From: an uncultured Candidatus Saccharibacteria bacterium | Lineage (GTDB): Bacteria; Patescibacteriota; Minisyncoccia; Phycocordibacterales; DATDWN01 | DNA: 64,000 nucleotides | NCBI GenBank assembly: GCA_964616425.1 | Contig: CAZTQY010000001.1 | Span: 23,008-87,007, forward strand | Reading direction: 5' to 3' | Shown here: positions 35,785-36,657 of the stretch, in pieces | How the letters are laid out: each line of letters opens with the position of its first letter | How positions within the stretch are numbered: position 1 is the first letter of the stretch | The notes under the pieces: generated by a model | Databases searched by the model: none | What the model saw: only the letters and a program-made list of their open reading frames with translations | What the model was told of the DNA's origin: nothing | Translations under genes and position numbers: made by a program

Positions 35785-36657
35785 CTACAGGAGAAATAGG
35801 TCCACATCGAAACCACTAGACTTTTCAATAGAAAAGTCAGCTTTGAGAACCAAATATTCAAATTTAAAACGTTTTTGTAAAATTTCTGGTCCAACAAAAA
35901 AAAATCCTGTGTTTAAAATATCTGCGAGCATTGTTGTCTCTGCCAAAGTCCAAATAGCTAAAATATCCTTTGGAGAAGATAGTGTATCTGGGTTGATAAC
36001 ATGATGAAAATCTCTCCATTTTCTACGATTTCCAGCTGAACCACACAAACTTTGATCCAAAATATCTATAGTTCCTATTGCCATTGTGTTGTCACCGGGA
36101 TGCTCCAGACCCACCTTTAAACTTTCTCTATTTACACTTCTCTGTCGCATATCTCCTCCAGCATCTACACAATATGATCCTATACCATATTTTTCTATTA
36201 TCTCTGAAACAATATCTACCAAATAACCCTTGCCGGCTGCACCAAAATCTAGAATGGTTGGCTCCAATAATGTTAGTTTGGGATTTTCCCACTTTATAAC
36301 TTCATCCCAAGTCTTTGGCCTAACTAGCTCTTTTGGCACCAGAGAATAGTTTGCGTCATAACCAGCATCAACTAAAACCTGACCAATAAGTGGTGTAACC
36401 AAACCAGATGTCACATCGTACATTTTTTTATATAAAGAGAACATCAGATCACTGTCTTCAGGTAGTTCAAACTCGCCAGACTCTTTTGACATCTTTGTAA
36501 CCAATGAGTCCTTGCGAAACCGTGAATAGATTAAATCAAACTCAGATATTCTATCGTGAATCTTTTGCAACAAAACAACCTCTGCTTCTTTAGAGAGGTC
36601 ATCTTGTATGTCTATTGCCCAATGTGTCCCAATGGCTTCGAACTCTTACTTAACCAT
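35785..36657 (-). CDS. apbE: FAD:protein FMN transferase (ApbE family), with an in-frame TAA at codon 4 (ATG-GTT-AAG-TAA). Possible pseudogene or downstream reinitiation at TTG 36573
   Basis: DFGAAGKGYLVD motif and ApbE-wide similarity. The conserved N-terminal AIGTHWAIDI (MGT motif) lies upstream of the track ORF start and downstream of the in-frame TAA at 36646-36648. Confidence 0.6.

Follow-up and report, generated by a model that had tools for sequence, protein, structure and literature searches.

A premature ochre stop at codon 4 of apbE in a Parcubacteria flavin gene cluster: a probable nascent pseudogene

INTRODUCTION

The gene studied here lies on the minus strand of a 64-kb stretch of DNA (the window, meaning the whole stretch that was analyzed) and encodes a protein of the ApbE family of flavin transferases. 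Its fourth codon is TAA. An earlier note on this DNA offered four explanations for this stop, namely, a recent nonsense mutation that made apbE a pseudogene, re-initiation at a downstream TTG, a sequencing error, and stop-codon read-through, and it remarked on the inserted island next to the gene. Which of these explanations fits the locus best is the question addressed here.

RESULTS

Reading frame of apbE

Direct reading of the minus strand revealed ATG (36657-36655), GTT (36654-36652), AAG (36651-36649), and TAA (36648-36646), followed by GAG TTC GAA GCC ATT GGG ACA CAT TGG GCA ATA GAC; the ATG is directly preceded on its 5' side by aaaaatat. The translation reads MVK, a stop, and then EFEAIGTHWAIDI..., and no further interruption occurs until TAG at 35787-35785. 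The parts of the reading frame are as follows.

36655..36657, minus strand: orthologous apbE start codon ATG, which lines up with the starts of 10 orthologous loci
36646..36648, minus strand: premature ochre stop TAA, apbE codon 4, with a single difference from TAC (Tyr) at 36646
35785..36645, minus strand: rest of apbE, 286 codons plus the stop codon TAG (35785-35787), in frame and intact
36631..36633, minus strand: in-frame ATT (Ile9), the nearest near-cognate codon and a putative restart site, 12 nt past the stop, read from the sequence
36571..36573, minus strand: TTG, codon 29, the first canonical in-frame start past the stop, which opens a 262-aa open reading frame (ORF)

In a mechanical ORF list, apbE begins only at the TTG at 36573, giving 262 aa, and public gene calling recorded this TTG-started product as protein P0246. 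The earlier note had named the same TTG as the next canonical start and had placed it about 25 codons further on; the position is right, but the TTG is codon 29 and lies at +72 nt from the TAA. As a chance test is inapplicable to a single deterministic stop codon, comparison with orthologues was taken as the relevant evidence.

Orthologues and family membership

A search of a protein collection returned thousands of homologues, and the best 120 were aligned with the window protein (121 sequences in total). These 120 proteins derive from Parcubacteria/Patescibacteria, are ~286 to 310 aa long (mostly 290 aa), and were matched at a query coverage of 99 to 100%. Their N termini follow the pattern M-(T/V/I)-K-(F/Y)-E-F-E-A-I-G-T, and neither a signal peptide nor a membrane segment was found in them. 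Since homologues of ~290 aa share this N terminus, the ATG at 36657 in the window is the orthologous start. Exactly three residues precede the codon-4 column in 91 of the 120 homologues, and the column itself is occupied by F (105 sequences), Y (11), L (3), or S (1). At the DNA level, ten orthologous loci read ATG-NNN-AAR-TTY/TAY-GAR throughout. The earlier note had proposed this comparison as a check, and its outcome was clear: the orthologues begin at the ATG and have a sense codon at position 4, and none of the 120 starts at the TTG of codon 29. Together with the direct reading of the minus strand, this confirmed that an in-frame TAA stands at codon 4 of apbE.

The sequence behind the stop belongs to an ApbE protein. 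The Pfam family ApbE (PF02424) matched with 112.8 bits against a cut-off of 25.6 (E 2.7e-32) and covered profile positions 2 to 250 of 266. Profile position 2 corresponds to the sixth residue after the TAA, in agreement with the earlier claim that the conserved N-terminal region follows the stop directly and in frame. ApbE/Ftp chains in the Protein Data Bank (PDB) also matched, down to E 1.6e-14, and in this comparison the KTMGTFW strand of the E. coli ApbE chains was aligned to EAIGTHW of the window protein. The window protein retains the residues at all 47 columns that are invariant in the 121-sequence alignment and shows 0 deviations at columns that are at least 95% conserved among the 120 homologues. 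Residues F6, I9, G10, T11, and W13 are invariant in this alignment, and all of them lie upstream of any canonical restart. The N-terminal motif had been described as of the MGT type; the conserved strand is indeed present, but the motif reads IGT here, with I9, G10, and T11 invariant in the 121 sequences.

Comparison with characterized ApbE/Ftp proteins, which are FAD:protein FMN transferases (PF02424; E. coli ApbE, PDB entries 2O18 and 4XGV; Treponema pallidum Ftp, 4IFU), revealed a full-length domain match in the window gene. The N-terminal (M/I)GT strand, the GKGY motif, and the D246...T250 (metal) motif are kept, and the gene adjoins an FMN_bind-like gene with an SGSS(L)T motif. The Parcubacteria subfamily differs from the characterized proteins in its short length (290 aa), in lacking a signal peptide or lipobox, and in its IGT motif, which takes the place of MGT. 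A further difference concerns the window gene itself: read from the orthologous start, it is interrupted by TAA at codon 4, where the orthologues have F or Y.

Gene neighborhood

In relatives, the order of genes is ECF-type sigma factor, 243-aa protein, ~120-aa protein, ~160-aa membrane-anchored protein, ApbE (290 aa), and 504-aa protein, and the spacing between apbE and the 504-aa gene is 15 nt in loci L001, L002, L015, and L016. The two genes that flank apbE in this order are present in the window.

36787..37287, minus strand: gene for a 166-aa membrane-anchored FMN_bind-like protein, upstream of apbE, with a sub-threshold match to Pfam FMN_bind (E 0.0045)
31397..32911, minus strand: gene for a 504-aa protein, downstream of apbE in the operon, with an NqrB/RnfD-like membrane part (weak) followed by FAD_binding_6 and NAD_binding_1

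The sub-threshold FMN_bind match recurs in six of nine orthologues of the upstream protein (best E 0.0021), and the motif KVSGSSLTPKG is invariant in this protein and resembles the [S/T]GA[S/T] flavinylation site. Because the sub-threshold Pfam matches recur and the motif is invariant, the ~160-aa protein was assigned as probably FMN_bind-like; it is also the probable flavinylation substrate of ApbE. A PDB profile search with this family gave no significant match. Positive charges follow the single transmembrane (TM) helix of the protein, and its sequence suggests that the FMN_bind-like domain faces the cytoplasm.

Judged by their predicted domains, ApbE, the FMN_bind-like protein, and the 504-aa protein look like a compact flavin-based membrane redox module. 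According to Méheust et al. 2021 (PMC8238504), partial NQR/RNF-like flavinylation clusters are found chiefly in Actinobacteria and in the candidate phyla radiation; by analogy, the window cluster may be of this kind. Beyond the 504-aa gene, a c-di-GMP-II riboswitch (RF01786; 31155-31238, minus strand; 61.5 bits against a gathering score of 53.5) is located upstream of a gene (26679-31100) for a PA14/DUF642/PG_binding surface protein, which has 1473 aa in the window and 1592 aa in L015.

Codon 4 in the closest relatives

Exact look-up of the neighboring 243-aa protein of the window, which is also present in other assemblies, led to L015/L018 (GCA_020049755.1, an 87-kb contig) and L016 (GCA_020047435.1). 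A further relative is L020 (ENA ERZ27268723, a short contig). L015 and L016 read ATG GTT AAG TAC GAG TTC GAA GCC ATT GGG, with Tyr at codon 4, and L020, a third independent assembly, reads ATG GTT AAG TAC GAG. In L020, both the allele of the upstream gene (98% protein identity, compared with 95% for L015) and the repeat element are of the window type. Since L015, L016, and L020 all have TAC, the TAA of the window is a private single-base change, and, as read from these sequences, it is C to A on the minus strand, or G to T at plus-strand position 36646. None of the 120 homologues and none of the three nearest assemblies has TAA at codon 4. No second assembly with the TAA allele was found by exact-pattern scans of genome and metagenome contigs, by exact-protein look-ups, or in the cluster listing, and the allele is present in one contig only among the genome and metagenome contigs scanned. 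The window gene thus has a stop codon at a position that is sense both in the orthologues and in the closest relatives, as expected for a pseudogene.

A singleton stop in one metagenome-derived assembly could also be an artefact of assembly, consensus calling, or sequencing, or it could be a minority allele of the sampled population that the assembler picked, in which case the real apbE would be intact with TAC. Substitutions of G to T are a known type of oxidative-damage artefact, and the private change is of this type; moreover, apbE otherwise looks perfectly functional. The comparison with L015 bears on this explanation. L015 and the window (45522-35818) are 98.9% identical and align gapless over 9.7 kb. 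Along the 7.8-kb backbone from 37.8 to 45.5 kb, 8 mismatches were counted in ~7,800 positions (99.9% identity) and no indels, and apbE is the only disrupted gene in the ~14 kb compared. From this clean backbone, consensus substitution errors appear to be rare in the window, whereas genuine substitutions are abundant in the tract that contains the stop (~5% divergence). A real mutation is considered distinctly more likely than an artefact because consensus errors look rare and genuine substitutions are plentiful in this tract. An artefact is therefore regarded as unlikely but by no means remote.

Divergent tract and selection on apbE

Between ~28400 and 37700, the window diverges from L015 by ~2 to 7%, with synonymous changes in proportion. 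Divergence is ~2 to 5% from the 122-aa gene and the FMN_bind-like gene through apbE into the 504-aa gene; the tract also includes the island site and the gene for the PA14 protein, and the alignment identifies it as an imported recombination tract. The TAA falls within this ~5%-divergent tract, which also carries the island.

The apbE genes of the window and L015 differ by 33 substitutions. The dN/dS ratio against L015 is 0.16 in the 3' half of apbE and 0.28 in the 5' half (5 synonymous versus 5 nonsynonymous changes); in the neighboring genes, it is 0.15 (FMN_bind-like gene) and 0.13 (122-aa gene). No relaxed constraint on apbE was measurable, either as extra lesions or as dN/dS compared with the neighboring genes. 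Over its last 33 nt, apbE has only 48% identity to L015, but the encoded C terminus is similar.

A relative-rate test against P0001 (92% identical) revealed 20 window-derived and 7 P0001-derived replacements (p = 0.019), which was first taken as a sign of relaxed selection. This reading was rejected, as the changes, including synonymous ones, cluster in the imported tract and the neighboring genes share the dN/dS. The 20:7 excess is uninformative on decay because the imported divergent allele explains it.

With 286 codons intact and a normal dN/dS, the stop must be either very young or an error. Young single-hit pseudogenes likewise have one in-frame stop that is lacking in all orthologues and in the nearest relatives, with no other lesion. 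Unlike decayed pseudogenes, the window apbE has no accumulated further defects that would prove that selection was lost. Within the four options of the earlier note, a recent nonsense mutation fits best, given TAC in the closest relatives and the lack of decay in the rest of the gene.

Repeat element upstream of apbE and programmed bypass of the stop

The interval between the FMN_bind-like gene and apbE is occupied by a repeat element.

36667..36790, no strand assigned: 124-nt palindromic MITE-like element between the FMN_bind-like gene and apbE, with a perfect 17-nt terminal inverted repeat

The element ends 9 nt before the apbE ATG and folds as one long hairpin (-35.7 kcal/mol, z -3.7). The same intergenic gap without the element measures 1 to 8 nt in L001, L002/L004, L005, and L009. 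Homologous copies are found at the same site in L006, L007 (two copies, one of them inverted), L015, L016, and L020, and L019 has most of one copy at a contig end. As apbE is intact in every MITE-bearing relative whose apbE start is visible, the element is unrelated to the stop.

The TAA is also overlapped, in another frame, by an ORF (36764-36612) whose product would contain a TM-like segment, and a protein fused to it would superficially resemble the signal-anchored ApbE proteins of other bacteria. The stop could then be bypassed in a programmed manner, by a -1 frameshift from this 50-aa ORF that yields a membrane-anchored ApbE or, alternatively, by reassignment of TAA or a dedicated suppressor. 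The orthologues speak against such a bypass: they have 290 aa, start at the same ATG, and have no signal or TM segment, and since the stop is absent from all relatives, nothing about it is conserved. No slippery heptamer of the form X_XXY_YYZ is present between 36645 and 36612. The frameshift fusion to a lost signal anchor was rejected for these reasons (orthologues without TM segments and no slippery site) and because the ORF lies inside the MITE-like palindrome; the 50-aa hydrophobic ORF (36612-36764, minus strand) is probably spurious. With regard to a changed genetic code, the 66 longest ORFs of the window end in TAA (36), TAG (18), or TGA (12). No suppressor tRNA was found in the 64-kb window, in which tRNA-Gln(UUG) is the only tRNA. 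Programmed read-through, one of the options of the earlier note, is thus not supported, as the stop is private, TAA is the commonest stop in the window, and no suppressor tRNA is present there. Programmed bypass in any form is very improbable.

Leaky expression of the ochre allele

A different possibility is that the mutation is real but that useful expression of apbE persists, through near-cognate read-through of UAA by tRNA-Tyr or through re-initiation after the 3-codon mini-ORF. The candidate re-initiation sites are AUU (codon 9, 12 nt downstream) and UUG (codons 29/30). The downstream ORF is wholly intact, with all invariant residues present, and a catalytic modifying enzyme may be needed in small amounts only; an intact ORF is explained equally well by the youth of the mutation. 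Restarts after early nonsense codons are documented for E. coli lacI and phage T4 rIIB. The window apbE resembles these cases in that the stop is located 3 codons from the start and start-like codons, such as the in-frame ATT 12 nt on, follow shortly downstream. Unlike these cases, it has no canonical start before invariant residues are lost, and it lacks an evident Shine-Dalgarno-like element. Of the bacterial stop codons, UAA terminates translation most efficiently, initiation at AUU is very weak, and the arrangement is conserved in no relative.

The products of a restart would also be incomplete: the invariant F6 would be missing from a protein begun at AUU9, and one begun at UUG29 would have no first strand at all. 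The re-initiation at the TTG that the earlier note had considered would cost the enzyme 28 residues, among them the invariant F6, I9, G10, T11, and W13, and no orthologue starts there; judged from the alignment, the TTG29-restarted product is unlikely to be an active enzyme. Leaky expression as a whole, with both candidate restart sites taken together, is therefore regarded as quite unlikely. One version of it, a real ochre allele that leaks through decoding of UAA by tRNA-Tyr, which would recreate the exact wild-type ApbE, or through restart at AUU9, is rated slightly lower still.

TIGR-TasR island downstream of apbE

The island that adjoins apbE contains the following features.

32944..35817, minus strand: 2.87-kb GC-rich TIGR-TasR island in the interval between apbE and the 504-aa gene, where it replaces the 15-nt spacer
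35781-35753, minus strand: promoter-like TTGACA-17-TAGAGT, just past the apbE stop
35735-34632 and 33187-32980, minus strand: guide units, 16 hairpins, 13 upstream and 3 downstream of tas
33192-34487, minus strand: Tas ORF, 431 aa
32974-32954, minus strand: terminator at the island end

Homology to L015 stops at 35818 and returns at 32943, and the GC content of the island is 50 to 55%, compared with ~36%. The 431-aa protein matched NCBIfam NF052498 (TIGR_Tas_endo) with 143 bits against a cut-off of 100, and the TasR chain 9MTY_A was its only sequence match in the PDB (E 5e-12). A Foldseek search with its AlphaFold model (pLDDT 93.3) revealed 9MTY as the best hit, followed by the IS621 recombinase and TasH; these matches are those of a Tas protein with a Nop-type RNA-binding domain. 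Each guide unit consists of a basal stem, CU(A/U), a 9-nt spacer, UG, a short apical hairpin, CU(A/U), a 9-nt spacer, UG, and the closing basal stem. Compensatory changes were observed in 10 of 12 consensus stem pairs, and the unit pattern was found nowhere else in the 64 kb.

Based on sequence and on the structural model, the island is a TIGR-Tas locus of the TasR, stem-loop-array type. The stem-loop array as a TIGR type was described by Faure et al. [quoted passage not shown] The island agrees with this description in the best match of its protein (9MTY) and in its 16 units, in each of which CU(A/U) and UG flank two 9-nt spacers; it differs from the TasR structure, which has CCA, in its box C-like motif (CUA/CUU). 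An initial interpretation as an IS110 insertion sequence with a bridge RNA, suggested by a match to Pfam Transposase_20, was replaced by TIGR-TasR once 16 guide-like hairpins and matches to NCBIfam and 9MTY had come to light. Tandem-spacer targets with at most 2 mismatches were not found in the window, and the window and related loci gave only noise-level matches with 3 mismatches. No relatives of the island protein turned up in the metagenome contigs scanned, and Rfam gave no match for the island and the apbE region at the gathering and E<=1 thresholds. A plus-strand ORF of 402 aa (33303-34511) runs antisense to the Tas gene; it most likely reflects the scarcity of stop codons in the GC-rich island and is not a gene.

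The island is absent from L001, L002, L015, and L016. L014 has the same island at the same site, with a Tas protein 68% identical, next to an intact apbE of 290 aa (75% identical). As L014 has the island beside an intact apbE, the island is not the cause of the stop. The adjacency that the earlier note had found notable is therefore not causal; the stop merely lies inside the recombination tract that bears the island, and the TIGR-Tas island is no part of the lesion.

DISCUSSION

The analysis points to a genuine and very recent knock-out of apbE, a nascent pseudogene, as the probable nature of the stop; this reading of the sequence comparisons is held with fair but by no means full confidence. 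A TAC-to-TAA substitution private to the window assembly would have converted Tyr4 of the cytoplasmic flavin transferase ApbE to an ochre stop. Ribosomes that start at the conserved ATG would make Met-Val-Lys only and then terminate, and the predicted outcome is a null allele or, at best, a severe hypomorph. The mutation would be very recent, since the remaining 286 codons are undamaged and bear the look of purifying selection. The loss of ApbE protein that we infer would leave the neighboring FMN_bind-like protein, and possibly the RnfD-like/FNR fusion, free of covalent FMN, unless another ApbE is encoded elsewhere in the genome.

Some observations count against a knock-out. The presumed substrate genes on both sides of apbE are intact, the gene gives no sign of relaxed selection, and a sequencing error would look identical. 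A leaky allele would explain the selected look of the remainder of apbE and of the substrate genes; if the allele leaked, a trickle of ApbE would keep a flavin-based membrane redox module working in a reduced-genome Parcubacterium.

The nascent pseudogene that we favor would be an event of an ordinary, well-known kind, with no new biological mechanism and nothing that runs against current knowledge. The more interesting object in the region is the TIGR-TasR locus, a member of a family described in 2025. For apbE, the main value of the finding concerns annotation: the locus should be labeled as apbE with an internal stop (a pseudogene or a possible error), and the 262-aa TTG-started fragment (P0246) should not stand as a deposited protein. 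If the mutation is real, the strain would be a natural knock-out of the only visible flavin transferase in a conserved cluster of a sigma factor, an FMN_bind-like protein, ApbE, and an RnfD-like/FNR protein. The near-identical sister strains represented by L015 and L016 would then provide the matched wild type, and the comparison could show whether the module is dispensable in Parcubacteria.
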